Shown here: one piece after another, positions 3,407 to 17,145 of the stretch
Layout: every line of letters begins with the position of its first letter
Position numbering within the stretch: position 1 is the stretch's first letter
NCBI GenBank assembly: GCA_050015075.1
Contig: JBEKCB010000013.1
Location: 1 to 64,000, forward strand
Origin: Candidatus Brocadiia bacterium
GTDB taxonomy: Bacteria; Planctomycetota; Brocadiia; CAIUPP01
Length of the DNA: 64,000 bases
Reading direction: 5' to 3'
The notes under the pieces: model-generated
What the model saw: only the letters and a program-made list of their open reading frames with translations
Told to the model about the DNA's origin: nothing
Databases searched by the model: none
Made by a program: the position numbers and the translations under genes

Positions 3407-3430
3407 CGAATGCCGAGGGGCGATCGCCGA

Positions 3431-5038
3431 ATGCCGATGGATGAGAATCGAATGGCCCTGAAAGATTCCAAGCGCGCGCGGGTGATGGCGCGGTCGAAGA
3501 AGCTCGGACACTGCATCTGCGACCCGCGAAAGGCCTGCCCCTGCAACCTGCTGATTGAAAAGGACGTCTGCCTTTGCGCCGGCGAGCGGCTGCCGGCGGA
3601 ACGGCGCGGGACTGCCGCGCCGAACGCGGCGCTGACGAAGCTGGTCAAGAACGCCGGCTGCGCCTCGAAAATTCCCGCCGCGGAACTCGCCAAAATCCTG
3701 GCACGGCTGCCGGCGGTCAGCGATCCGCGCCTGCTCGTCGGGCTCGGCACCGCCGACGACGCGGGCGTCTTCCAGGTCAGCCCGGATCTCTGCCTGGTGC
3801 AGACGGTGGATGTCTTCGCTCCGTGCGTGGACGATCCGTACCTCTTCGGCCAGATCGCGGCGGCGAATTCGCTGAGCGACGTGTACGCGATGGGCGGCGC
3901 GCCGCTGACGGCGCTCTCGATCGTCGGCTGGCCGATCCACACGCTGAGCGACGAGTGGCTCGTCCGCATGCTCGAAGGCGGCATGGACAAGCTGCGCGAG
4001 GCGGGCGTCATCCTCGTCGGCGGGCACAGCATCAACGACGAGGAGATCAAGTTCGGGTTCGCGGTGACCGGCACCATCCGGCCGGACGCCATCGTGGCGA
4101 ACTCCGGCGCGCGGCCGGGCGACGCGATGATCCTCACCAAGCCGGTCGGCACGGGCATCATTTCCTTCGCCGCGCAGATCGGGCGCGCCTCCGCCGAAGC
4201 GCTGCGCGCCGCCGGCGAGAGCATGGCCGCGCTCAACCGCGGCGCCGCGCAGGTCATGTGCCGCGCCGGCGCGCATGCGGGGACCGATGTCACCGGCTTC
4301 GGCCTGCTCGGCCATCTCTGGCAGGTCGCGCGCGAGAGCGGCGTGACGGCCGAACTCTGGTGGGACGCGGTCCAGGCGCTGCCGGGAGCCCTCGAATGCG
4401 CCCGGCAGGGCATCGTCTCCGGCGCGGCCGAGCGCAACCGCGAGTTCGCCGGCCCGGCGGTGACCGTCGCCGCCGGCGTGCCGGAATACGCAATGGACCT
4501 GCTCTACGACGCGCAGACTTCCGGCGGGCTGCTGATGTTCGTGCCGGAGCAGGCCGCCGGGCGGACCGTCGCCGAACTGCGCGCCGAAGGCTGTTCTTCC
4601 GCGGCCGTCGTCGGCCGCATTCTGGGGAAATCAAAAGGAGGGATCATCGTGGCGAAAAAACGCGACTCCGCACCCCGCACTCCGCCGCCCGACGCGGCTC
4701 GCGGCGCTGAGCCTGTCGAAGGACACGCCGCAGCCGAAAAGTGCTGCTCGACGGAATCAGCGCCTGCCGGCTCCGCCGGCTCGCCGCAGGAGGCGTTCCA
4801 GGATTTCATGGGAAAGGCCTTCGCGCCCGGCGCGCTCGACGCGGTGCAGAAGGAGATCATGACCATCGCGCTCTCGGTCGCCGTGCAGTGCGAGCCATGC
4901 CTGAAGATCCACCTGGAGAAGGCGCGCAGCATGGGCATCAGCCCCGACGAAATCCGCGAAGCCGCCTGGATGGGCATCGTGTTCGGCGGCTGCAAGGCGA
5001 TGATGTTCTGGAAGGAGAAGGGGCCGAAGGACGGATGA
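3431..5038 (+). CDS. selD: Selenide, water dikinase SelD with an N-terminal Cys-rich extension and a C-terminal CMD/AhpD-like domain
   Basis: SelD motifs LTKLVKNAGCASK (Cys form), DDAGV, VQTVD, FGQIAAANSLSDVYAMGG, GGHS, TDVTGFGLLGH and DAQTSGGLL. N-terminal HCICDPRKACPC..CLC. C-terminal GALDAVQKEIMTIALSVAVQCEPCLKIH. Confidence 0.95.
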   Translation: MPMDENRMALKDSKRARVMARSKKLGHCICDPRKACPCNLLIEKDVCLCAGERLPAERRGTAAPNAALTKLVKNAGCASKIPAAELAKILARLPAVSDPRLLVGLGTADDAGVFQVSPDLCLVQTVDVFAPCVDDPYLFGQIAAANSLSDVYAMGGAPLTALSIVGWPIHTLSDEWLVRMLEGGMDKLREAGVILVGGHSINDEEIKFGFAVTGTIRPDAIVANSGARPGDAMILTKPVGTGIISFAAQIGRASAEALRAAGESMAALNRGAAQVMCRAGAHAGTDVTGFGLLGHLWQVARESGVTAELWWDAVQALPGALECARQGIVSGAAERNREFAGPAVTVAAGVPEYAMDLLYDAQTSGGLLMFVPEQAAGRTVAELRAEGCSSAAVVGRILGKSKGGIIVAKKRDSAPRTPPPDAARGAEPVEGHAAAEKCCSTESAPAGSAGSPQEAFQDFMGKAFAPGALDAVQKEIMTIALSVAVQCEPCLKIHLEKARSMGISPDEIREAAWMGIVFGGCKAMMFWKEKGPKDG

Positions 5039-5095
5039 CGGGCGATGGCTGAGTGCTGATCGTTGACCGGCAACCGCCGGAGAAAGGAGCGGAAC

Positions 5096-5875
5096 ATGGC
5101 CCTCGGAAAAAATCACGTGCTGGTCATCGTCGCCATCGCGGGCATTATGGCGCTCACACTGGCCGGGGCTGGCCTGTTCAGCGGGAAGCAGGGGCCCGGC
5201 TATCTCCGGATCAACGTCTCAGACAAGAGCGCCGCCTACCTTGAATTTGAAGGCGCGGCCCTGCGCGCCGCGGCGAGCATGGAGGGACTGAAGACCGCGG
5301 AGCCGCTGCCGCTGCGTGCGCTGAATTTCCGGGCGGCGCAGTCCAGGGAGTTCACACTCCCGATTCCGGCCGATCAGCTTCCCGCAGGCGTCAGCGCCGT
5401 CAAGGGGATCTTCACGCGGACGGGGAGCAATGTCTCGGGCCAGATGGGAATCTGCCGGACGGACGCGCAGAAAGTCGTCTGGCAATGCGACGCAGGGATC
5501 TTGTCGGGGACCGGCGATCATGCGGAGGCGGCGCCGGCCATCCAGTTGCCAAGCCTGGAGACGCTTGCGCTGGTTGTCACGGGCGCGCCCTCGAATGGGA
5601 AACTGGGCATCGGTGTGCGGCTCGCGGCCGGCGACAACCCGGTGACCGGCGTGCTCAAGGATGGAAAGCCCGTGCCGGTCCAGGTCAGCGTGACGGACGC
5701 CGCCGGCAAAGAGGTGGCCGCGCGGAAAGGGCCGTTGACTGATTTCGGGTTCAGTTGAGGCGGCCCCTGCTGCTCCGTCGGAGTGGCGAAAGGCACGTAC
5801 ACGGTTTCCGCGACTCTCGACGCGGGGCCGTTCGGGTCCGCCGTGAAAGGCCAGGCGAAGGTCGTCGTGCCGTAG
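5096..5875 (+). CDS. Putative exported selenoprotein, paralogue 1 (Sec at TGA 5756-5758; U-G-G-P-C-C), 259 aa
   Basis: AAGGAG RBS and an N-terminal hydrophobic segment. The in-frame TGA is followed by 38 codons (GGPCCSVGVAKGTYTVSATLDAGPFGSAVKGQAKVVVP-TAG) that are conserved in the three downstream paralogues. SECIS-like hairpin at 5769-5787. Confidence 0.88.
5769..5787 (+). promoter_or_regulatory. Bacterial SECIS-like hairpin (paralogue 1)
   Basis: GCTGCTCC-GTC-GGAGTGGC: 8-bp stem with two G-U wobbles, starting 11 nt after the UGA. Confidence 0.8.
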
Positions 5876-5889
5876 CCGCCCGCTGGCTC

Positions 5890-5937
5890 GTAGTGTGCCC
5901 GCCAGGGCATACGAAGCAGCGCCTGACGGCGCCACTA
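5890..5937. repeat. GTAG-type REP-like element (second copy at 34283-34330)
   Basis: GTAGTGTGCCCGCCAGGGCATACGAAGCAGCGCCTGACGGCGCCACTA is near-identical to 34283-34330. Both copies sit just after stop codons. Confidence 0.75.
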
Positions 5938-5970
5938 TAAGCTGCCCGTGAGATTCCGCGGCCCGCTCCA

Positions 5971-6141
5971 CTAGATACGTATCGCACCTAGTCGAGTGCC
6001 GGGTCTGGCGGTCGCCTTTCGTGAGCCGGTTGCGCTGCGCCGGATGAGGGACTAGATACGTATCGTATCTAGCGGCGGCTGAAGCAAGCGAGCGGTTGCA
6101 GGATCACCCGCGGCGCAACGCTAGTTACGTATCGTATCTAG
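5971..6141. repeat. Three 21-bp palindromes, consensus CTAGATACG-TAT-CGTATCTAG
   Basis: Copies at 5971-5991, 6052-6072 and 6121-6141, separated by unrelated 60- and 48-bp gaps. Confidence 0.85.
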
Positions 6142-6206
6142 TGGCAGGCTGACGGATGAGGGGGCGCGCTTCGCGGGGCGGGCGCGGCGCATTCTGAAGT
6201 TACTCC

Positions 6207-6235
6207 TTGACAGACGCGACTTTGTGCCATACGCT
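6207..6235 (+). promoter_or_regulatory. sigma70-type promoter of paralogue 2
   Basis: TTGACA-N17-TACGCT. Confidence 0.6.
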
Positions 6236-6278
6236 TACGCTTGTGAGCCGAACAGGGCATTTGGCGAAGGGTGCCCGC

Positions 6279-7091
6279 ATGTCTCTATGCGGCCGCAGGG
6301 CGCGGGCCGTCGCGATGGCGGGCGCCATGGCGCTGGCGTGGCTGTGGGCCGGCACCAGCTCTGCGCAGACCTCGCAGAAGCCGGCCTTCGCGCGGCTCGC
6401 CGTGTCGGAGAATAGCGTCGTTTACATTCAGATCGAAGGCGGCGAACTCCGCGCGGCGATGAGCGCCGAGGGCTTGCAGACCGCCGCGCCGGTCAGGATG
6501 ACCGCGGAGTCCGCCTACGTAATCGCGTCCCCCGAATTCACGCTGCCCATTCCGGCCGAGCGACTGCCCGCCGGCGTCACGGCGATCAAAGCAACCCTGA
6601 CGCTGATGCAGATTCCGCCATCCACATTGCGGTCCGAGTGGCCGCCCCGTATTAGCGGCAGGTTCAGGATCTTCCGGACCGATGACCGGAAAGTGGAATG
6701 GCAATACGCGTCGTCCGGCGAGGTGCTGACAGGGGCGAACGCGGAGGAAGCGCCGTCCATCATGCTGCCCAACCTGGACAAAGTGAACGCCCGCCTGGCG
6801 GCCGCAGTGAGTGGAGGAACGCTGAGAGTGAACCTGGGGGTCAACGCCGGCGGCGCGCTCCTGGCCGGCGTGCGCAAGGCCGGCCACATGGTCCAGGTGA
6901 AGATGGTCGTGACGGACGCCTCCGGCGCCGTAATCGCCTCGAAAGTCGGGACGCTGTCCGACTTCGGGTTCAGTTGAGGCGGCCCGTGCTACTCCGTTGG
7001 AGTAGCCAAAGGGACTTACACCTGCACCGCGACGATGGATGTCGGGACCGGTTCGCCGCTGAAGGCAACGGCGACGGCTGCGGCTCCGTAA
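6279..7091 (+). CDS. Putative exported selenoprotein, paralogue 2 (Sec at TGA 6975-6977; U-G-G-P-C-Y), 270 aa
   Basis: Signal peptide ending ...LAWLWAGTSSA. After the TGA the frame continues GGPCYSVGVAKGTYTCTATMDVGTGSPLKATATAAAP-TAA. Hairpin GCTACTCC-GTT-GGAGTAGC at 6988-7006. Confidence 0.88.
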
Positions 7092-7185
7092 CGAGAGATT
7101 GCGCGGGTCCGGCGCCTGCGCTTGGGCGGCAGCGGCGTCATAAGTACGAGCCTGTCGCGCGAGGTGCGGAAGAGGAGGCGAGGCT

Positions 7186-7968
7186 ATGTTGCGATCTTGC
7201 GGCAAGAGGCTGATCGTCGCAGTGGCGGGCGTTGCGGCGCTGATGTGGGTCGGGGCCGGCTGCACCTCCGCGCAGGTCTCGCAGGGGCCGGCGTTCGCCC
7301 GGCTCGCCCTGTCGGAGAAGAGCGCCGTCTGCATCCGGATTCAAGGCGGCGAAGTCCGCGCGGCGATGAGCGCCGAGGGCTTGCAGACCGCCGAGCCGGT
7401 CAAAACGCACACCGAATTCACGCTGCCGATTCCGGCCGATCAACTGCCCGCCGGCGTCACGGCGATCAAAGCGAACCTGGCGCTGATGCAGATTCAGACG
7501 GCCGCGTCGGCCGCGCTGGCGCCCTACATTAACGGCACGTTCAGGATCTTCCGGGCGGATGACCAGAAGGCGGAATGGCAATTTGTGTCGGCCGGCGGCG
7601 GCCTGGCCGGGGCGAACGCGGAGAAAGCTCCATCCATCAAGCTGCCTGACCCGGACAAGTTGGACGCCAGCCTTTCGGCCACGGTCACTGGAGAAAAGCT
7701 GGCCGTCGGCCTTCGGGTCACTGCCGGCGGCGCGACCTTGACCGACGTGCGCAAGGACGGGCACCTGGCGGTGGTGAAGATGGTCGTGGCGGACGCCTCC
7801 GGCGTCGAGATAGCCTCAAAAGTCGGCACGCTGGCCGATTTCGGGTTCAGTTGAGGCGGGCCCTGCTACTCCGTGGGAGTAGCTAAAGGGACTTACACCT
7901 GCACCGCCACGCTGGATGTCGGGGCCGGTTCGCCGCTGAAGGCAACGGCGACGGCCGTCGTCCCCTAG
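7186..7968 (+). CDS. Putative lipo-selenoprotein, paralogue 3 (Sec at TGA 7852-7854), 260 aa
   Basis: GAGGAGG RBS and lipobox-like VGAGC. After the TGA the frame continues GGPCYSVGVAKGTYTCTATLDVGAGSPLKATATAVVP-TAG. Hairpin GCTACTCC-GTG-GGAGTAGC at 7865-7883. Confidence 0.88.
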
Positions 7969-8059
7969 CGAGGGATTCTTCGGTCCGGGCTTGTGTTTCG
8001 GCGGCGGCGGCGCTATAAACAAGGACGTGTCGCGCGAGGCGCGAAAGAGGAGGTGGGTT

Positions 8060-8827
8060 ATGTTGAGGGTTTGCAGCAGGGGGCTGGCCGTCGCGGCGTG
8101 CGCCGCGGCGCTGGCTTTGATCGGGGCCGGCTGCGCGGGAGTGCAGACCGCGCAGGCGCCGGCGTTTGCCCGGATCCCCCTGTCGGAGAACTGCGCCGTC
8201 AGCATTCAGATTCAAGGCGGCGAAGTCCGCGCGGCGATGAGCGACCAGGGAGTGCAGGCCGCCGCGCCGGTCAAGGCGGGCTCCGAATTCGCGCTGCCCG
8301 TTCCGGCCGATCAACTTCCCGCCGGCGTCACGGCAATCACCGCGAGCCTGTTGCTGACGCAGTATCAGTCGGGCGAAAACGCCGCGGTTGTCGGCCAGCT
8401 CACGGTCTTCCGGACCGATGACCAGAAGGCGGAATGGAAGTACGTGTCACAGCTCAGCGTCCCGGCCAGGGTGAACTGGGATCACGCGCAGTGCATCAAG
8501 TTGCCCGATCCGGCTGATGTGAAGGCCAGCCTCGAAGCCACGCCCGCCACAGGAAAACTTTCCATCGGCCTCAGGCTCACCCTCTATGGCGCCGCGATGG
8601 CCGACGTTCGCAAGAACGGCAAGCCGGTCCAGGTGAAGATGGTCGTGGCGGACGCCTCCGGAGCCGAGATCGCTTCAAAAGTCGGGACGCTGGCCGACTT
8701 CGGGTTCAGTTGAAACGGCCCCTGCTACTCCGTGAGAGTAGCTAAAGGAACTTATACATGCACGGCCACGGTGGAAGTCGGCGCCGGTTCCCCGCTCAAG
8801 GCGGAAAAGACGGTCACTGTGCCGTAA
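8060..8827 (+). CDS. Putative lipo-selenoprotein, paralogue 4 (Sec at TGA 8711-8713; U-N-G-P-C), 255 aa
   Basis: GAGGAGG RBS and lipobox-like IGAGC. After the TGA the frame continues NGPCYSVRVAKGTYTCTATVEVGAGSPLKAEKTVTVP-TAA. Hairpin GCTACTC-CGTGA-GAGTAGC at 8724-8742. Own promoter TTGTGT-N17-TATAAA at 7991-8019. Confidence 0.88.
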
Positions 8828-8853
8828 TCGCGCGAGACGGTTTCGGACATTTC

Positions 8854-8890
8854 AAGGGCGCTGGCTGATTCGGCCGGCGCCCTTTTGTTT
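8854..8890 (+). terminator. Intrinsic terminator after paralogue 4
   Basis: AAGGGCGCTGGCTG-ATT-CGGCCGGCGCCCTT followed by TTGTTT. It lies just after the extended stop codon (TAA 8827), not after the TGA. Confidence 0.75.
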
Positions 8891-8900
8891 CTGGCGTGTA

Positions 8901-8991
8901 TCGTACTCGTCCTCGTCCTCGGCCGCACGAAACGGCCGTTCGAGGACGAGGACGAGGACGAGGACGAAAACGGCGACGAGCACGAGGACGA
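8901..8991. repeat. (CTCGTC)n/(GACGAG)n palindromic repeat (second copy at 12080-12166)
   Basis: Inverted hexamer arrays that produce spurious LVLVLV/EDEDED ORFs. Confidence 0.8.
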
Positions 8992-8998
8992 CTGGCGC

Positions 8999-9096
8999 GG
9001 GAGCGGATGGGTCCTGGTGGATCTTGCTCCGCTTCAAACGGAGTGCGGGGCCCTGATAAGGTCCTAGGTGGGTTCGATTCCCACACGCTCCCGCCA
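8999..9096 (+). tRNA. selC: tRNA-Sec (anticodon UCA)
   Basis: 8-position acceptor GGGAGCGG/ACGCTCCC followed by GCCA. 6-bp D stem with a 4-nt TGGT loop. Anticodon arm CTCCG-CTTCAAA-CGGAG with TCA at 9034-9036. Long variable arm and T arm GTGGG-TTCGATT-CCCAC. Confidence 0.97.
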
Positions 9097-9159
9097 ACAT
9101 TAATGACGATGGACGATAGACGAGGGACGATGGACGATGGAAAAAACCGGACAGCGCCA

Positions 9160-9828
9160 ATGGGAGAAACTGCCTTGAGCCGCGACAAGATCCTCGAAGA
9201 ACTCGCCCGAACGGTCGTGGCGATGGACGAAGCCGGGGCCGTGGCCGCCGCGCACAAGGCGCTCGCGGGCGGCGTGGACCCGTACGTGGCGATCAACGAC
9301 GGGCTCGCCGTCGGCATGCGCGAGGTCGGGCGGCTCTACGACACGGGCGAATACTTCGTCCCGGAAATCCTCATCTGCTCCGACGCGATGAACGCCGGGA
9401 TCGCCGTCCTCAAGCCGCACATCCGCCGCGCGCCGGGCCGCGAGCCGGTCACCGTCATCCTCGGCGTCATCGAGGGCGACATCCACGACATCGGCAAGAA
9501 CATCGTCAAGATCATGCTCGACGCCTCCGGCTTCCAGGTCGTGGATCTCGGCCGCGACGTGAGCGCCGAGCGCTTCGTCCAGGCCGCGCGCGAGGCCAAG
9601 CGCGGGCTCGTCGGCCTCTCCACGCTCATGTCCACCACCATGGAGAACATGGGCAAGGTCGTCAGCGGCCTCTCCGACGCCGGGCTGCGGAAGGAGTTCC
9701 GCGTGATGCTCGGCGGCGCGCCCTGCTCGGAGGCCTTCGCGCGCGAGATCGGCGCGGACGGGTTCGGGCGGAACGCCAGGGAGGCGGTCGAACTCGCGGA
9801 ACGGTTGTCCGGGAAATTGGGTGATTAG
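9160..9828 (+). CDS. Methyltransferase-cognate corrinoid (B12-binding) protein, MtaC/MtbC-like
   Basis: Cap domain GLAVGMREVGRLYDTGEYFVPE and B12 motif EGDIHDIGKNIV..DLGRDV..GLSTLM..MLGGAP. The start is ATG 9160 or TTG 9175; the longer ORF-track start overlaps the tRNA. Confidence 0.93.
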   Translation: MGETALSRDKILEELARTVVAMDEAGAVAAAHKALAGGVDPYVAINDGLAVGMREVGRLYDTGEYFVPEILICSDAMNAGIAVLKPHIRRAPGREPVTVILGVIEGDIHDIGKNIVKIMLDASGFQVVDLGRDVSAERFVQAAREAKRGLVGLSTLMSTTMENMGKVVSGLSDAGLRKEFRVMLGGAPCSEAFAREIGADGFGRNAREAVELAERLSGKLGD

Positions 9829-9928
9829 GAGATTGGGAGATTAGGTGATTAGGAAATTAGGAGCTTGGGTGATTGAGTTTGGCGATTTTCGCCACCCAAT
9901 TTCCCAATTTCCTAATCTCCCAATCTCC
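9811..9928. repeat. Inverted octamer array (TTGGGAGA/TCTCCCAA type; similar element at 54441-54551)
   Basis: Tandem ~8-bp units followed by their reverse complements. Confidence 0.75.
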
Positions 9929-9953
9929 AGTTGTGAATCAGCAAGGAACTGAA

Positions 9954-10988
9954 ATGCCCAGTGACAAGATGTCGCCCGCCGAACGCTTCACCGCCTTCCT
10001 CAGCGGCAAGCCGATGGACCGCTTCCTGTGCGTGCCGCTGATCCTCAACCATGCCGCGCGCGTCCTCGGCGTGAAGGTCGGCCGGTACAACCGCGACGGC
10101 CGGCTCATGGGCGAATGCCATGCGGCGGCGTACCGGCGCTACGGGCACGACATGATCGCGATCTTCTCGGATACCGCGATCGTCGCCGAGGCGATGGGCA
10201 CGGAACTTTACTATCCGGAGGACGACGTCCCGCGCGTCGAGCGGCCCGCGCTCGCCGACCCGAAGGACCGCAGCCGGCTCGTCACCGCCGACTGGGCCGA
10301 CCGGGGCAAGCTGCCGGTTTTCTACGAGGCGATCCGCGTCGCGGCCGAGGCGCTCCACGGCGAAGCGCCCATCGGCTGCTGCGTCCCGGCGCCCTTCACC
10401 ACCGCCGCCTGCCTGCGTGGCACCGACCAGCTCGCGCGCGACCTCTACCGGAACCCGGCGCTCGCGCATGAACTGCTCGCCCTCGCGCTCGAAGCGGCGA
10501 AGCAGTTCGCCGGCCGCATCATGGATTCGGGCGGCGTGCCGGTGGTCGTGGACCCGGTCGCCACCGGCAGCGTCCTCGGCCGGCGGCAGTTCGAGGAGTT
10601 CGCGCTGCCGTACCTGAAGCCGCTTCACGCGCACGTCGCCGCGCGCGGGTTCCCGGTGGTCCTGCACATCTGCGGACAGACCGCGCGCACGCTCGATCCC
10701 ATGGCCGAATCCGGCGCGGCGCTGCTGAGCCTGGACGACATCTCGATGGCCGAGGCGCGCGACCGCGTCGGCGGCCGCGTGGCGCTCATGGGCAACGTCC
10801 GGCCCGCGCAGACGCTCCTGAAGGGCAAGCCGGAAGACGTCCTCCGCGAGGTCCGCGACCTGTGCGACATCGGCCGCAAATGCCAGGCCGGTTTCATCCT
10901 CGGCAGCGGCTGCGAAGTCCCCATCGCCAGCCCGCCGGAGAACATAGACGCCATGATGGCCGGCGTCAGAGAATACGGGAGAATGTAG
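9954..10988 (+). CDS. Uroporphyrinogen decarboxylase-fold methyltransferase (MtaA/CmuA family)
   Basis: Zn-binding HICG motif, C-terminal GFILGSGCEVPIASPPENI, GNVRP and APFTTA. Adjacent to the corrinoid protein. Confidence 0.88.
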   Translation: MPSDKMSPAERFTAFLSGKPMDRFLCVPLILNHAARVLGVKVGRYNRDGRLMGECHAAAYRRYGHDMIAIFSDTAIVAEAMGTELYYPEDDVPRVERPALADPKDRSRLVTADWADRGKLPVFYEAIRVAAEALHGEAPIGCCVPAPFTTAACLRGTDQLARDLYRNPALAHELLALALEAAKQFAGRIMDSGGVPVVVDPVATGSVLGRRQFEEFALPYLKPLHAHVAARGFPVVLHICGQTARTLDPMAESGAALLSLDDISMAEARDRVGGRVALMGNVRPAQTLLKGKPEDVLREVRDLCDIGRKCQAGFILGSGCEVPIASPPENIDAMMAGVREYGRM

Positions 10989-11040
10989 CAAGGCGCCGGA
11001 AATACGTCCCATATTTCCCATCAATCACATAGGCCCCATT

Positions 11041-12075
11041 ATGTCCTTCACAGCGCGCAGCCGGCTTACCGGCGCCCTTCGCCGCGAACCGGTGGACCGC
11101 CCGCCGGTCATCTGCCCCGGCGGCATGATGACCATGGCCACCGCATCCGCCATGCGCCGAGTCGGCCGCGCCTGGCCGGCGGCGCACTCCGACGCGCGCG
11201 CGATGGCCGAGATCGTCCTCGCCACGCGCGACGAGACCGGGCTCGAATGCCTCGCCGTCCCGTTCTGCATGACCGTCGAGGCCGAAGCGCTCGGCTGCAC
11301 CGTGGACATGGGCAGCGCAACCGTGCTCCCGCACGTCGCGGTCGAATGCATCCGCGATCCGGCGGAGGTCGGCGGCCTGCCGGAGTTCAACCCGGAGCGC
11401 TCCGGCCGCGCGCCGGTGGTGCTCGAGGCGATCGAGCGGCTGAAGAGCGCCTGCGCCGGCGCCCCGGTCCTCGGCGGCGTGCTCGGCCCGGTCACGCTCG
11501 CGGCGATGATCATGGATGCCGGCCTCTTCCTGCGCCTGACGCGGCGCGACCCGGCCGCCGCCGAACAATTCATCGCCGCCCTGGAGCCGGTCGTGGTCCG
11601 GTTCGCGCTCGCGCAGCACGCCGCCGGAGCCGACTGCGTCACCGTGGCCGAGCCTTCGGCCACCGGCGAAGTGCTCGGCGGAAAGCACTTCGAGAAGCTC
11701 GCCGCGCCCGCGCTCGTCCGCGTCCTCCGCGCCTTGCGCGACGGCGGGGCATCGCCTATACTGCATATATGCGGCGACCTGCGGCCGATCCTGCCGCAGG
11801 TGGCGCTCATCGCGCGCAAGCTCGACGCGCCGCTGGCGCTCAGCGTGGACGCGATGGTCAGCGGGCGCGACTTGCAGGCGGCGCTGCCGGAGGTCGTGCG
11901 CGTCGGGAACGTGGACGCGCTCCTGCTGCAGCGCGAAGATGTCGCAACGGTTGAGCGCGTGGCGCGCGCGGCGGCGCTCGATTTCGACATCCTCTCGCCC
12001 GCCTGCGGCCTGGTCCCCACGACGCCGGCGGAAAACCTGCGGGCGATGGTCCGCGCGGCGCAGCGGCAATTATAA
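11041..12075 (+). CDS. Methylcobamide methyltransferase (MtaA/MtbA family)
   Basis: DRPPVICPGGMM, VPFCMTVEAEALGC, LHICG and SPACGL. Confidence 0.9.
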   Translation: MSFTARSRLTGALRREPVDRPPVICPGGMMTMATASAMRRVGRAWPAAHSDARAMAEIVLATRDETGLECLAVPFCMTVEAEALGCTVDMGSATVLPHVAVECIRDPAEVGGLPEFNPERSGRAPVVLEAIERLKSACAGAPVLGGVLGPVTLAAMIMDAGLFLRLTRRDPAAAEQFIAALEPVVVRFALAQHAAGADCVTVAEPSATGEVLGGKHFEKLAAPALVRVLRALRDGGASPILHICGDLRPILPQVALIARKLDAPLALSVDAMVSGRDLQAALPEVVRVGNVDALLLQREDVATVERVARAAALDFDILSPACGLVPTTPAENLRAMVRAAQRQL

Positions 12076-12212
12076 GCGCATCGTACTCGTCCTCGTCGTC
12101 GTCCTCGTCCTCGGCCGTTCAGAACGGCGATTCGAGGACGAGGACGACGACGAGGACGATTACGATAGGTTGCGATTAACGCGCGTCGTATCCTCTGATG
12201 AGAGCCTTGTGA

Positions 12213-13115
12213 ATGAAGCCAAGACCTGAAATCGGAATATGGGGTCGGCGCTTCCCGACGCAGATCGTCTCGCTGATCGCCTTCAACGGTTACTTCTGGC
12301 GCGGGCCGGGAAAGTGGTTCTGCCTGCCGGTCCTGAACTGCTACGCCTGCCCGGTCGGAACGGTCGCCTGCCCGATCGGTAGCCTGACGGCGTTCGCGCT
12401 GGCGCGGAGGATCCCGTTTTACGCCCTGGGACTCCTCGGTGTCATCGGAGTGGCCGTCGGCCGCGCGTTCTGCGGATGGGCCTGCCCGTTCGGGCTTTTC
12501 CAGGACCTGCTGTACCGCATCCGCTCGTTCAAGTTCCGGCTGCCGCGCGCGGCGAACGCGCTGAAGTACGCGCTGCTGGTCGTGCTGGCGCTGGGGCTGC
12601 CGCTGATTATGGGCGGCGGAAAGCGGACCGGCTCCGAGGACCGGATCACCGGCGAGAAGACCGGCGCGCTGGACTATTGCTCGCTGGTCTGCCCGGCCGG
12701 GACGCTCGAAGGCGGCGTGCCGGTCCTGGCGGCGAGCGCCTCGGTGCGCGCGCAAGCCTCGTGGCGAACCTGGAGCAAGATCGGTCTCGCGGTGGGCATT
12801 CTCGGCCTGACGGTCGTCGCGCGCAGGAGCTTCTGCCGCGCGCTCTGTCCGCTCGGCGCGCTGATGGCGCTCACCTCGCGCGTCTCGATGATGCAGTTGC
12901 ACACCGAGGACAAGCTCTGCACGCGCTGCATGCGCTGCGTCAAAGTCTGTCCCACGTACGCGCGGCATCTGCCGTTCAAGCAGTTCAAGACCGAGGCCAC
13001 CGTCGAATGCGTGATGTGCCTCGACTGCGTCCGCAACTGCCCGGAGAAAGGCGCGCTCTCCGCGCGGATGGGCGGGAAATCTTTCTCCGTCAGCGAAGGG
13101 AGGACCCGTGAGTAG
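12213..13115 (+). CDS. Membrane 4Fe-4S binding protein (NapH/MauN-like polyferredoxin)
   Basis: LNCYACP, GRAFCGWACPFG, FCRALCPLG, two CxxCxxCxxxCP motifs and several TM helices. Confidence 0.9.
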   Translation: MKPRPEIGIWGRRFPTQIVSLIAFNGYFWRGPGKWFCLPVLNCYACPVGTVACPIGSLTAFALARRIPFYALGLLGVIGVAVGRAFCGWACPFGLFQDLLYRIRSFKFRLPRAANALKYALLVVLALGLPLIMGGGKRTGSEDRITGEKTGALDYCSLVCPAGTLEGGVPVLAASASVRAQASWRTWSKIGLAVGILGLTVVARRSFCRALCPLGALMALTSRVSMMQLHTEDKLCTRCMRCVKVCPTYARHLPFKQFKTEATVECVMCLDCVRNCPEKGALSARMGGKSFSVSEGRTRE

Positions 13116-13386: not shown

Positions 13387-14790
13387 ATGTCGGACGATTC
13401 CGCGCTCCTGCGCCAGTTGCCGCGCGTGGACGACTTGCTCGTCCATCCGCGAATGGCCGCGGTTCCGGCGGCGCATGCGCTGGCTTTGAAGGCCGCGCGC
13501 GAGGCGGTGGCCGAGACGCGCGCGCGGCTTCTGGCGGGCGAAAGCGCGGTGGACGCGAGCGCCGACGCCGTCGCGGCGCGCGCCGCGGAGATCCTCGAAC
13601 GCGCCGCCGCGCGCAGCCTGCGCCGCGCCGTCAACGCCACCGGCGTCCTGCTCCACACCAACCTCGGCCGCGCGCCGCTCTCGGACGCCGCGCAGCGGGC
13701 GCTCGCCGACGTCGCCGGCGGGTTCTGCAACGTGCAGGCGGACCTCGGCTCCGGCCGCCGCTCCGAGCGCGAGGACCACGTGCAGGGCCTCTTCCAGGCG
13801 CTCACCGGCGCGGAGGCGGCGCTCGTCGTCAACAACAACGCCGCCGCGACCGTGCTGGCGCTCAACACGCTCGCCGCCGGGCGCGAGGTGATCGTCTCGC
13901 GCGGCGAGATGGTCGAGATCGGCGGCGCGTTCCGCATCCCGGAAATCCTCAAGCTCGCCGGCTGCCGGCTCGTCGAGGTCGGCTGCACCAACCGCACTCA
14001 CCTGCGCGATTACGAGCGCGCCCTCACGCCCGAGACCGCGCTGATCCTCTCGGTCCACCAGAGCAACTATCGCATCGTCGGGTTCGCCGAGCAGACGCCC
14101 GTGCGCGAGCTGGCCGAGCTGGCGCACGCCCGCGGGATTCCCTGCGCGCACGACCTCGGCAGCGGCGCGCTGCTCGACCTGCGCGCCTACGGCCTGCCGC
14201 ACGAGCCGACCGCGCCGGAGAGCCTGGCCGCCGGCGCGGACGTGACGCTCTTCAGCGGCGACAAGCTGCTCGGCGGACCGCAGTGCGGCATCCTCCTCGG
14301 CAAAAAGGCGCCGCTGGCGGCGATGCACAAGAACCCGTTCTACCGCGCGTTCCGCGTCGGCAAGCTGACCCTGGCCGCGCTCGAGGCGACGCTGCGTCTC
14401 TTCCTCGAGCCGGAGACGCTGCTCGAGAAGCACCGGCTTATGTCTCTGCTGACGGCCCCGCTCGAAGGAATCCGCCGCCGCGCCGAGTCGCTCGCGCAGG
14501 AAATCGCCGCCTCGTGCGCCGGCTGGCTGGCGGCCGAGGCGCAGGCGGGCGAATCGGAAATCGGCGGCGGCTCGCTCGCCGGATATCCGATCCCGACCGT
14601 CGTGGTCCGCCTGAGCCCGAAGGGCCTCTCACCCGACGACTTGGCCGCGCGCCTGCGCCAGTCCGACCCGCCGATCTTCACCCGCGTCCACGAAGGCTGC
14701 GTGCTCCTCGACGTGCGGACCATGCTTCCCGGCGAAGAGCGGCTCATCGTCGAGGCGCTGAAGCGGATCGGGGCTAAGGTCCAGCAATGA
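13387..14790 (+). CDS. selA: L-seryl-tRNA(Sec) selenium transferase
   Basis: LRQLPRVD, NATGVLLHTNLGRAPL, VVNNNAAA, SRGEMVEIGGAFRIP, EVGCTNRT, DLGSG and the PLP lysine motif FSGDKLLGGPQ. Confidence 0.98.
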   Translation: MSDDSALLRQLPRVDDLLVHPRMAAVPAAHALALKAAREAVAETRARLLAGESAVDASADAVAARAAEILERAAARSLRRAVNATGVLLHTNLGRAPLSDAAQRALADVAGGFCNVQADLGSGRRSEREDHVQGLFQALTGAEAALVVNNNAAATVLALNTLAAGREVIVSRGEMVEIGGAFRIPEILKLAGCRLVEVGCTNRTHLRDYERALTPETALILSVHQSNYRIVGFAEQTPVRELAELAHARGIPCAHDLGSGALLDLRAYGLPHEPTAPESLAAGADVTLFSGDKLLGGPQCGILLGKKAPLAAMHKNPFYRAFRVGKLTLAALEATLRLFLEPETLLEKHRLMSLLTAPLEGIRRRAESLAQEIAASCAGWLAAEAQAGESEIGGGSLAGYPIPTVVVRLSPKGLSPDDLAARLRQSDPPIFTRVHEGCVLLDVRTMLPGEERLIVEALKRIGAKVQQ

Positions 14791-15234: not shown

Positions 15235-17145
15235 TTGGATATTCCTCCGCGCCACATCATCTTCGGCACCGCCGGGCACGTGGACCATGGGAAGTCCATG
15301 CTGGTCCTGGCGCTGACCGGGACCGATCCGGACCGGCTGGCCGAGGAGAAGGCGCGCGAGATGACGATTGATCTCGGCTTCGCTTTCCTCCCGCTGCCCG
15401 GGATCGCCGGCGCCGTCGCGATCGTGGACGTGCCCGGGCACGAGATGTTCCTGCGCAACATGGTGGCGGGCGCGACCGGGATTGACGCGGCGATGCTCGT
15501 GATCGCGTGCGACGAAGGGGTGATGCCGCAGACCGTCGAACACCTCGACGTCTTGCGCTGCCTGCGCATCTCCGAAGGCGTCATCGTCCTGACCAAGGCC
15601 GACAAATCGCCGGACCTGATCCCGGCGGTGACCGAGGAGGCGCGCGAGCTGGTGCGCGGGACGTTCCTGGAGAAGGCGCGGGCCATCCCGGTCTCGTCGG
15701 TGACCGGCGAAGGGCTGCCTGCGCTCAAGGAAGAGCTGGCGCGGATCGCCGCGCGCGTGCAGGCGCGCTCGGCCGAGGGGATCTTCCGCCTGCCGATTGA
15801 CCGCGTCTTCACGCTCAAGGGCGTCGGCACCGTCGTCACCGGCACGGTGATCTCCGGCTCGCTGAAGACCGGCGAGACGGTCGCCTGCCTGCCGCAGAAT
15901 TCGGCGCTGCGCGTGCGCGGGCTCCAGGTGCACAACGAGGCGGCGGCGGAGGTCTTCGCCGGCCAGCGCGCGGCGATCAACTTGGCGGACGCGTCGAAGG
16001 AGGACCTGGAGCGCGGCAATGTCCTCGCCGCGCCGGGCATGCTGGCGCCGACGCTGATGGCCGACGTGCGGCTGGAGCTTTCGCTCCGGTCGCCGAAGCC
16101 GCTGGCGCAGCGCGCGCGGGTGCGCATCCATCACGGGACCAGCGAGCTGATGGCGCGCGTGGTGCTGCTCGACCGGGAGTCGCTGCCGGCCGGCGAGTCG
16201 GCGCTGGTGCAGTTGCGTTTCGAGTCGCCGCTGGTCGCAGCCGCCGGCGACCCGTTCGTCGTCCGCTCGTATTCGCCGATGTTCGTCATCGGCGGCGGCA
16301 GCGTCGTGGACCCGCATCCGCCCAAGCGCCGGAAAGCCGCCGGCGCGGAGGACGTGGCGAAGCGCGAGAGTTCACCGGTCGCCGATGTGATCCTTGACGC
16401 GCTTGACCGCGCCGGCGCGCGCGGGGTGGAGTTCGCCCGGCTCCGGATCCATTGCGGGATCGGCGACGACGCGCTCCGGTCCGCGCTGGCCGGGATGAAA
16501 ACGGACGCGCTCGCCGCCGACGGCCGCCGCGATGTCTGGTTCAGCGCCGGCGCGCTCCGCGAGATGCAGGCGGCGATCACCGCGCGGCTGGCGCGCCTGC
16601 ACGCCGAGGAGCCGCTGCGCCCGTTCGCCGCGCTCAACCAGGTCTCCGCCGGCGCCGCGCCCACGCCGGAGTCGCGCGAGTGCTTCCGCCTGGCGCTCGA
16701 CGGACTGCGCGACCGCGGCGAAGTGATCGCCGCCGGCGAGCGGCTGCGCCTGGCGACTCACCAGCCGCAGTGGGTCGGCCGCTACGCGGCGGTTCGCGAG
16801 AAGCTGCTGGCGCAGTCCCGCGAGAGCGGCCTGGCCGTGCCGGCCGTCGCCGAATGGGCGCCACGAGTCGGGCTGTCCGAGCCGGACTGCCGGCGCTCGC
16901 TCGACGCCCTGGCCGAGGCGGGCGAATTAGTCCTGCTCGCCCCCGGCATTTATGTCCACCCCGAGTGTTTCAGCGGCGCGCGCGACCGGGTGAAGGAATT
17001 CCTGGCGAAGAACGGCCGAATGAATATCGCGCAGGCGCGCGATCTGCTCAGCGCCTCGCGCAAGTACCTGCTCCCGTTCCTCGAAGAACTGGACCGGCAG
17101 CGCGTCACCGCGCGGCAGGGCGACTTCCGGGTTCCCGCTTCTTGA
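15235..17145 (+). CDS. selB: Selenocysteine-specific translation elongation factor
   Basis: GTAGHVDHGKS, EEKAREMTIDLGFA, DVPGHE, NMVAGATG and TKAD. C-terminal winged helix SRKYLLPFLEELD..T.RQGD.R. Confidence 0.98.
   Translation: MDIPPRHIIFGTAGHVDHGKSMLVLALTGTDPDRLAEEKAREMTIDLGFAFLPLPGIAGAVAIVDVPGHEMFLRNMVAGATGIDAAMLVIACDEGVMPQTVEHLDVLRCLRISEGVIVLTKADKSPDLIPAVTEEARELVRGTFLEKARAIPVSSVTGEGLPALKEELARIAARVQARSAEGIFRLPIDRVFTLKGVGTVVTGTVISGSLKTGETVACLPQNSALRVRGLQVHNEAAAEVFAGQRAAINLADASKEDLERGNVLAAPGMLAPTLMADVRLELSLRSPKPLAQRARVRIHHGTSELMARVVLLDRESLPAGESALVQLRFESPLVAAAGDPFVVRSYSPMFVIGGGSVVDPHPPKRRKAAGAEDVAKRESSPVADVILDALDRAGARGVEFARLRIHCGIGDDALRSALAGMKTDALAADGRRDVWFSAGALREMQAAITARLARLHAEEPLRPFAALNQVSAGAAPTPESRECFRLALDGLRDRGEVIAAGERLRLATHQPQWVGRYAAVREKLLAQSRESGLAVPAVAEWAPRVGLSEPDCRRSLDALAEAGELVLLAPGIYVHPECFSGARDRVKEFLAKNGRMNIAQARDLLSASRKYLLPFLEELDRQRVTARQGDFRVPAS

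Follow-up and report, generated by a model that had tools for sequence, protein, structure and literature searches.

What do four adjacent genes encode when each appears to end at the same TGA codon, directly behind the same five residues, and all lie among genes for selenocysteine (Sec) synthesis? Such an array occupies positions 5096-8827 on the forward strand of a 64,000-nt stretch of contig JBEKCB010000013.1 (assembly GCA_050015075.1) from a Candidatus Brocadiia bacterium, and we refer to this whole stretch as the window. The initial annotation of the window proposed that the genes are hidden selenoproteins. Our analysis suggests that they very probably encode a large, previously undescribed family of exported selenoproteins. 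The best explanation overall, which we consider highly probable, is that the four genes, together with a fifth copy that resides on another contig of the same genome and also carries one TGA, are members of a large bacterial selenoprotein family that is absent from current catalogues.

Four tandem genes with an in-frame TGA

The four paralogues are arranged head to tail, and each has one in-frame TGA directly after the residues DFGFS. Gene 1 (5096-5875) would encode 259 amino acids with Sec at residue 221, an N-terminus that begins MALGKNHVLVIV..., and the loop FGFS-U-GGPC-C. The predicted product of gene 2 (6279-7091) has 270 amino acids with Sec at 233, that of gene 3 (7186-7968), which was the protein used for modelling, has 260 with Sec at 223, and that of gene 4 (8060-8827), in which the loop reads U-NGPC, has 255 with Sec at 218. 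The TGA codons are located at 5756-5758, 6975-6977, 7852-7854 and 8711-8713, just where the initial annotation placed them, and the frame behind them remains open, again in agreement with it, for 38, 37, 37 and 37 codons, up to TAG (5873-5875), TAA (7089-7091), TAG (7966-7968) and TAA (8825-8827). Open reading frames (ORFs) called under translation table 11 end at the TGA (5758, 6977, 7854 and 8713), so standard annotation truncates all four genes, as had been anticipated; a database copy, P0005, is 222 amino acids long. Genes 2-4 share 41-48% protein identity with gene 1, and the likeness is highest around and behind the TGA.

These TGA codons are not assembly errors, because the same letters are found in contig pieces of four further peat metagenome runs, with no alternative letter at any TGA. 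Pieces from all four runs span the codons of genes 2, 3 and 4, and one listed piece (run X4, 5096-5932) spans that of gene 1. An open frame behind a TGA is not in itself informative here. The genome has a GC content of 64.7%, TGA is its commonest ordinary stop (2366 of 4021 long ORFs), and 49% of these 2366 ORFs have at least 37 open codons behind the stop. The open frames thus do not exceed what is expected by chance, and the case rests on conservation, a Sec insertion sequence (SECIS), forms with Cys in place of Sec, and genomic context.

Conservation of the frame behind the TGA

DNA sequence is available for 27 copies of the family, which come from the window, the remainder of its genome (the fifth copy), genomes G001, G002 and G494, and 15 metagenome loci (22 copies plus that of locus L011, two in L028 and two in G494). 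Some of the metagenome copies are near-identical, and the copies are therefore not independent. The initial annotation reasoned that homologues with TAA or TAG in place of the TGA would speak against Sec; all 27 copies have TGA at the same codon. The tail stays open for 37-39 codons in 26 of them, and length differences among these 26 are all whole codons. In the second L028 copy (positions 1094-1220 of that locus), one base is missing from a run of C residues right after the TGA, and the conserved tail is recognizable one frame over; this copy contains either a sequencing or assembly error or is a young pseudogene. The proposed U-x-x-x-C motif holds for the 19 copies in which Sec and Cys are separated by three residues, and needs widening for seven copies with four, so that the partner Cys is 4 or 5 residues after Sec.

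The ratio of nonsynonymous to synonymous substitution rates (dN/dS) behind the UGA, a check that had been suggested for this locus, was calculated as a pooled Nei-Gojobori estimate, with the 16 copies that have 37-codon tails as the main set. It is 0.354 for the whole tail and 0.371 for tail codons 13-37, which lie past the hairpin described below, compared with 0.974 and 1.925 when the same tail bases are shifted to the +1 and +2 frames; for the 40 codons ahead of the UGA, the value is 0.478. The tail evolves under purifying selection that is confined to its own frame, and it is protein-coding. The earlier description of its variation as mostly synonymous was an overstatement, given a dN/dS of 0.23 among three close window paralogues and 0.35 among the 16 copies.

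A SECIS-like hairpin behind the UGA

A hairpin begins 10 bases behind the UGA in copies with three residues between Sec and Cys and 13 bases behind it in copies with four. Its typical form is GCUACUCC-GUN-GGAGUAGC, with a GU-containing loop of 3 or 5 nt, and it covers the codons for C-Y-S-V-G-V-A. Published constraints on bacterial SECIS elements (PMC13188914, section 5, Fig. 2) require 3-9 nt in the loop, with G in its first two positions, 4-16 bp in the stem, a distance of 16-37 nt from the UGA, and a minimum free energy at or below -7.5 kcal/mol. The hairpin agrees with these constraints in 25 of 25 copies tested, in which the stem has 7-8 pairs, the distance from the UGA is 16-21 nt and the energy ranges from -7.5 to -12.9 kcal/mol; the two G494 copies, which are outside the 25 given the energy test, contain the same hairpin sequence. 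In the window, the hairpins of genes 1 (5769-5787; loop GUC, 18 nt from the UGA, -11.6 kcal/mol), 2 (6988-7006; loop GUU, -12.2 kcal/mol) and 3 (7865-7883; loop GUG, -12.6 kcal/mol) have 8-bp stems, and that of gene 4 (8724-8742; loop CGUGA, -10.0 kcal/mol) has a 7-bp stem.

Among 12 distinct hairpin sequences, we observe wobble-compatible changes (U-A to U-G and A-U to G-U), some end pairs that are broken, and a single A.C mismatch. The structure is plausible and well placed, to judge by its sequence. In relatives that do not have Sec, the peptide over the hairpin, which is YSVGV in Sec forms, varies (YTLRV, YFANM, YSAPV and others), and this variation fits an RNA-level constraint in the Sec forms. 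Moreover, when the whole genome is searched for the core of the family hairpin behind a TGA, the matches are the five family genes and a single non-coding chance match.

Relatives in protein databases and the Sec and Cys columns

A word-index search returned 44 relatives, none covering more than 85% of the query, and all 22 that were retrieved end in [FL]GFS. A profile search of 1.84 billion representatives detected 254 proteins (clusters at 50% identity) at E<=0.001, of which 206 are at E<=1e-10, and a scan of viral contigs found no relative. Residues in the Sec column were classed for the best 150 of the 254 representatives. Of these 150, 122 terminate at the very residue that precedes the Sec column, in x-[FL]-G-[FY]-[STG], 2 end within a residue or two of it, 12 are fragments, and 14 pass through it.

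The initial annotation called for a search for homologues with Cys in place of the UGA, and the profile search found two among the 14 relatives that run through, P0053 (C-DGP-C) and P0179 (C-GGRA-C), both of which retain the partner Cys. In the remaining 12, the Sec column is occupied by some different residue and the partner column never by Cys; two of them have Cys one position off. Thus, the two chalcogen residues are retained or lost jointly, and the case for their acting as a pair is built mainly on this.

The initial annotation could not assign the proteins to a named selenoprotein family, and no such family matches here either. Scans of the four window proteins against Pfam and NCBIfam gave noise only (tail_tube, E 0.038; Fer2_BFD, E 0.41). 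Among 106 diverse members, none matches any NCBIfam model at E<=0.001, including the models of catalogued selenoprotein families, and Pfam yields one chance match, to DUF4644 (3.8e-4). Membership in DUF1573 (PF07610) was considered and rejected, since the four window proteins do not match this model at E<=1, and none of the 106 members does at E<=0.001. The longer relatives (P0121, P0132, P0189 and seven others) showed no Pfam domain.

The Sec machinery and distribution of the family

The genes selA, selB, selC and selD all lie within the window around the array. As the initial annotation stated, the array is between selD and selC. The selD gene (3410-5038, forward strand, exact start uncertain; Pfam AIRS, AIRS_C and CMD; TIGR00476, 362.8 bits) encodes a Cys form (GCASK) with an AhpD/CMD domain, which bears a C-E-P-C motif, fused at its C-terminus. 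The selC gene (8999-9096, forward strand), which specifies tRNA-Sec with anticodon TCA, was detected with ARAGORN and as Rfam RF01852 (60.9 bits, E 2.1e-10). Farther downstream on the same strand are selA (13387-14790; Pfam SelA, 4.4e-134; TIGR00474, 533.3 bits) and selB (15235-17145; Pfam GTP_EFTU, Beta-barrel_SelB and SelB-wing_3; TIGR00475, 344.2 bits). The earlier proposal that Sec is encoded here by UGA plus a SECIS is supported by the UGA in 27 of 27 copies, by a hairpin consistent with the published constraints in all 25 tested, and by the presence of selA, selB, selC and selD in the locus.

In 9 of 15 loci scanned, and also in L033, which belongs to G494, the gene that directly follows the family is that for tRNA-Sec. 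The nine include the window's own DNA as L016, and L017 is identical to L018; the genomes covered are G000, G001, G002 and G494. In G494 the gene order is family, selC, selA, with no genes between selC and selA, and the place upstream of the family is taken by a GDPD-family gene rather than by selD. A subtype with U-GGGAC (L004, L007 and L027) occurs at a separate locus that is not beside sel genes, and in L004 and L007 it adjoins a Ser/Thr kinase gene.

The family is present in 4 of 132 species genomes of the class, and all four are among the 66 genomes with SelA. The expected restriction of UGA forms to Sec-positive genomes is thus seen in four of four holders. The sister genome G003, which is 92% complete, has neither the family nor SelA. 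In a phylum sample of 401 genomes, the family was detected only in the window's own genome. Its copies span two taxonomic families, and so do not reflect a recent duplication.

Predicted structure and location

An AlphaFold2 (AF2) model of the gene 3 protein (pLDDT 86.6, pTM 0.79) is all-beta, and consists of an N-terminal beta domain and a C-terminal sandwich resembling immunoglobulin (Ig) and fibronectin type III (FN3) domains; residues 1-30 are disordered and hydrophobic. The beta-rich, Ig-like C-terminal domain that had been predicted from the sequence is thereby recovered. The tail behind the UGA supplies strands 228-231, 235-243 and 251-259 of this domain. As these are its last three strands, the sandwich would be incomplete in a protein that stopped at DFGFS. 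In the model, Sec is in the loop between helix 216-219 and strand 228-231. Comparison of the C-terminal domain (156-260) with VIA-align returned generic Ig/FN3 matches and no specific relative, the best being 5ag9_B (Z 9.5, root mean square deviation 2.0 A over 65 residues).

The N-terminal domain (gene 3 residues 31-157, window 7276-7656) was also modelled alone from 106 sequences (pLDDT 95.3). Among 48,161 solved chains compared with VIA-align, none reaches Z>=5, and the best is FAIM-NTD at Z 4.7. A Foldseek search of the PDB returned no match at E<=0.001, either with the whole model or with the N-domain (best E for the N-domain 0.045), a profile search of PDB sequences gave one match at E 1.1, and for the natural Cys form P0053, a protein atlas offered nothing usable (scores <=0.76, TM <=0.40). 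The modelled N-domain is possibly a new beta fold; a missing match is no proof of this, though the values are well below what such searches usually return.

The initial annotation assigned export signals to all four proteins and lipoboxes to two. N-terminal hydrophobic segments are visible by eye, whereas the lipobox assignments fare poorly. In lipoboxes, Leu, Val or Ile is usual at the position where the G-A-G-C of these proteins has Gly, and the Cys in question is not conserved among orthologues, so lipoprotein status is doubtful. Two longer relatives have several long hydrophobic stretches at the N-terminus in place of the short segment. By eye, this region is a multi-helix membrane domain, which fits an outward-facing, membrane-tethered protein. 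Together with the hydrophobic segments, it leads us to predict a periplasmic or surface location.

Proposed mechanism

We propose that the single in-frame UGA would be read as Sec by the organism's own SelA, SelB, tRNA-Sec and SelD, and that the hairpin behind the UGA would direct this reading; this step is strongly supported. That the genes are selenoproteins made by ordinary SelB- and SECIS-dependent recoding is, in our estimation, highly probable. The mature protein is predicted to have an N-terminal hydrophobic segment for export or anchoring, the beta-rich N-domain, and the C-terminal Ig/FN3-like sandwich. Sec and the Cys 4 or 5 residues beyond it are predicted to sit in a loop of this sandwich that is rich in Gly and Pro, FGF[STG]-U-x3/4-C, and may work together outside the cytoplasm. 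The choice of partner or substrate would then fall to the N-terminal domain, which varies among the paralogues. Taken together, the N-terminal segments, the fold and the joint loss of U and C suggest export, a working Sec-Cys pair and N-domain specificity.

Two kinds of chemistry are conceivable for such a pair. It could cycle between selenol/thiol and selenenylsulfide states, as a redox relay or the site of a reductase, or it could clamp a soft ligand, for example a chalcogen species or a metal or metalloid. A selenenylsulfide redox pair is the likeliest of the functional readings, with a chance that falls a little short of even.

The fixed position of the family directly upstream of selC suggests that, in this lineage, the Sec machinery has a main client in this family. 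We checked six families that commonly contain selenoproteins in the window's genome, which is not a full census. Matches to PF00384, PF00578, PF02627, PF00085 and PF08534 were found, none of them interrupted by TGA, and PF10262 has no match. Since SelD is itself a Cys form, the family may be the main reason that the Sec system has been kept, with the proviso that the census is incomplete. A genome-wide scan for other selenoprotein genes, based on a TGA, a hairpin and an open frame, gave 536 matches that amount to noise and was set aside.

Alternative explanations

Several observations weigh against the interpretation as exported selenoproteins with a Sec-Cys pair. Sec insertion and production of the proteins are deduced from sequence evidence, and none of the 24 sequencing runs listed as holding window DNA is on record as RNA, so expression is predicted only. 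Double compensatory changes are absent among the 12 distinct hairpin sequences, and because the hairpin overlaps a conserved peptide and shows only wobble-compatible changes, the RNA structure is not proven by covariation. Cys forms are few, at 2 of 14 full-length relatives. The 122 truncated representatives are known from protein records alone, in which the stop codon is not visible. One relative, P0067, has W at the Sec column, where TGG and TGA under another code are not distinguishable. Within the folded domains, model confidence is lowest in the Sec loop (mean pLDDT 71 for residues 221-230), export was read by eye, and the function is suggested by motif, predicted location and analogy.

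Could the UGA then simply be a stop? The proteins would end at DFGFS, and the conserved remainder would be non-coding, for example an RNA hairpin or an attenuator, or else would be left over from a recent duplication. That genes of this genome usually stop at TGA, that about half of the TGA-ended long ORFs are open for as many codons, that all database gene calls end at the TGA, and that the hairpin shows no double compensatory changes are all compatible with this idea. It does not explain why purifying selection is frame-specific even past the hairpin (0.371 versus 0.974 and 1.925), why open tails differ in length by whole codons, why homologues with Cys or other residues read straight into the same tail, or why the tail forms the last three strands of the modelled Ig-like domain (228-259), and we regard an ordinary stop as very improbable. 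Equally improbable is that the UGA is read through as Trp, Cys or Gly, by near-cognate decoding or a local change in the code. The W of P0067 would be in line with such decoding, and the identity of the residue as Sec is deduced here from sequence. Against it stand the suitably spaced SECIS-like hairpin in 25 of 25 copies, the whole Sec machinery in the locus with selC as the next gene, the restriction of the family to SelA-positive genomes (4 of 4) and its absence from the SelA-negative sister G003, and the Cys at this column in two relatives, which is typical of Sec/Cys pairs. Moreover, other genes here stop at TGA, as do the tails of L011 and L033.

If the proteins are selenoproteins, the alternatives concern what the Sec-Cys loop does. 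It might bind a soft metal or metalloid (Hg, Cu, Cd or As) in a chaperone, scavenger or sensor, rather than serve as a redox relay, and this we regard as unlikely, though worth serious attention. A selenolate and a thiolate on a flexible Gly/Pro loop, in a protein predicted to be extracytoplasmic, could form a metal site, and the two residues are kept or lost together. Metal-linked selenoproteins are also catalogued (PMC13188914, Table 1), among them the MerB-like SaoL, HgcA/HgcB, the metal-binding double selenoprotein MbdU, and Cu/Zn efflux proteins. The same locus also encodes a ferredoxin resembling NapH/HgcB and a corrinoid system, and all 24 runs listed as holding the DNA are peat metagenomes. 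However, we see no metal-resistance or transport gene beside the family in the loci scanned, and neither sequence nor fold matches a known metal-binding family. Less probable still is a covalent carrier or collector of chalcogen (Se or S), that would work together with the SelD-AhpD fusion in supplying selenium. The order SelD-CMD, family, selC is preserved in the window, L011, L019 and L020, an Ig-like domain that bears a Gly-rich loop is reminiscent of the sulfur carrier SoxY, and none of the six common selenoprotein-bearing families is TGA-interrupted in the window's genome. Yet such a carrier would need selenium in order to acquire selenium, no transporter is seen nearby, the family in G494 adjoins selC and selA but has a GDPD-family gene upstream instead of selD, and the subtype at separate loci (L004, L007, L027) is not beside sel genes.

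Other features of the locus

The initial annotation reported a terminator after the extended stop. A terminator-like hairpin with a T-run is indeed present on the forward strand at 8854-8884, 27 nt after the extended stop of gene 4, and none was found after genes 1-3. It is the sole such site in 5000-9200, where shuffled sequences have a mean of 3.2.

A short element at about 5886-5957, just behind gene 1, has a summed word depth of about 800-1600x in four peat runs, compared with about 10-20 in its flanks, and many contigs break there. It is a very abundant repeat that resembles repetitive extragenic palindromic (REP) sequences or miniature inverted-repeat transposable elements (MITEs), and its translations, e.g., ...CSGAVRRYFVCPDGHT..., recur throughout the genome. 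Between genes 1 and 2 there are three copies of an AT-rich, 21-nt near-palindrome, CTAGNTACGTATCGNANCTAG, at 5971-5991, 6052-6072 and 6121-6141, spaced 81 and 69 nt apart; shuffles lead one to expect none. Its 16-nt core, TACGTATCGNANCTAG, has one match at the equivalent relative place in the related contig L019 (3850-3865). The three near-palindromes look like a set of operator sites for some regulator of genes 2-4.

The SelD of the window has a Cys-rich N-terminal extension, and the SelD-AhpD/CMD fusion is also found upstream of the family in L011, L019 and L020. Its AhpD-like domain shows weak matches to the AhpD parts of the known selenoproteins ArsM_AhpD_UU, MduS and GSU3128, and may handle the selenium donor for SelD. 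Between selC and selA (9133-13115) are four genes that encode an MtbC-like corrinoid protein, two methyltransferases of the MtaA/CmuA family, and a NapH/HgcB-like ferredoxin membrane protein. Elsewhere, selC is followed by a B12-binding gene (L008 and L017) or a URO-D gene (L020). Judging from these gene assignments, the corrinoid methyl-transfer system in the sel locus might process methylated compounds of chalcogens or metal(loid)s. On the reverse strand upstream of selD, a histidine kinase gene with GAF, PAS and HisKA_3 domains (433-2943) is present, and the same kind of kinase is located upstream in L008, along with a LuxR-type response regulator, and in L017. This kinase may regulate the sel and family locus. 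One of the 24 peat runs listed as holding window DNA may be the source of the window.

Comparison with known systems

A 2026 catalogue (PMC13188914, Table 1) lists 119 prokaryotic selenoprotein families and subfamilies with models and motifs, and the FGF[STG]-U-x3/4-C motif is absent from all 119 entries. We found no description of such a family in the literature, where supplementary candidate lists (e.g., PMC12013277, Table S2) could include it. The closest comparison within the catalogue is with predicted families of unknown function, i.e., DUF1573 with 'UGC', the hypothetical DG, DW and DF families, and TsoB with U-x4-U. Like these, the present family has a single Sec-UGA, a SECIS hairpin in the coding region, truncated database entries, Sec near Cys, Cys-form relatives, and a position near sel or other selenoprotein genes. 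It differs in that the listed Pfam and NCBIfam models match 0 of 106 members and in that its motif is not in the table.

The balance of Sec and Cys forms also sets the family apart. A section of the deep-Sep paper (PMC12013277) states that nearly every selenoprotein has many Cys homologues, and that finders that depend on such homologues may miss families that have few. Here, by comparison with what that section says of other selenoproteins, Sec forms appear to outnumber Cys forms heavily, with 122 truncated proteins and two Cys forms among the best 150. Taken with that account, the rarity of Cys forms would explain why the family is absent from catalogues.

Thioredoxin-fold selenoproteins with UxxC or CxxU (thioredoxin, glutaredoxin, peroxiredoxin-like and DsbA-like proteins) resemble the family in having Sec with a close Cys and, probably, selenenylsulfide chemistry. 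Assignment to this type was rejected, because the model is all-beta, the spacing is x3 or x4 rather than x2, and no hidden Markov model of a thioredoxin family matches. Other scaffolds offer better analogies. The N-terminal domain of DsbD (nDsbD) is a periplasmic Ig-like domain with a redox-active Cys pair, and SoxY is an Ig-like, periplasmic sulfur carrier whose carrier Cys is on a Gly-rich arm. With nDsbD, the family would share an Ig-like sandwich outside the cytoplasm and two close chalcogen residues in loops, which makes it perhaps the best functional analogy for a relay not based on thioredoxin. Unlike nDsbD, the predicted domain is free or on a simple anchor, without the DsbD membrane core, and it has Sec and an extra N-domain. 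The likeness to SoxY would lie in a beta sandwich with a flexible, Gly-rich segment that bears a reactive chalcogen residue. In contrast to SoxY, that residue lies on an internal loop at a distance of 37-39 residues from the C-terminus and has a Cys partner; near the family, we saw no sox genes. Neither nDsbD nor SoxY is matched by sequence, and the listed fold matches are only generic Ig/FN3 domains with Z up to 9.5, a list that does not exclude families outside it. By analogy, the family may function most like these periplasmic carriers with a reactive Cys on an Ig-like, non-thioredoxin scaffold.

Significance

The prokaryotic selenoproteome would gain a large family that had gone unseen, with 254 clusters at 50% identity and no Pfam or NCBIfam model. 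To the extent that finders rely on Cys homologues in the way that the section of the deep-Sep paper cited above describes (PMC12013277), the family would expose a blind spot in them. Every database copy loses 37-39 residues, and with them the last three strands of the domain and the predicted active-site partner Cys. Four traits are unusual for a selenoprotein: the family looks exported, has a non-thioredoxin fold, occurs as tandem paralogues, and has a fixed place beside selC across two taxonomic families.

A more ambitious and improbable interpretation combines several of the points above. The family would be the principal client and the outward part of a selenium-centered module, its N-domain would be a new fold, and Cys would be unable to replace Sec. 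If so, the module would comprise the SelD-AhpD fusion, the exported Sec-Cys proteins, selC, the corrinoid methyltransferase set, selA and selB, and would act outside the cell to capture or convert chalcogen or methyl-metal(loid) species, with ligands selected by the new N-domain fold. The family, at no fewer than 254 clusters and nearly all in Sec form, would then be among the few in which Cys cannot take the place of Sec. More generally, the family may offer a testable answer to why these bacteria retain costly Sec machinery.

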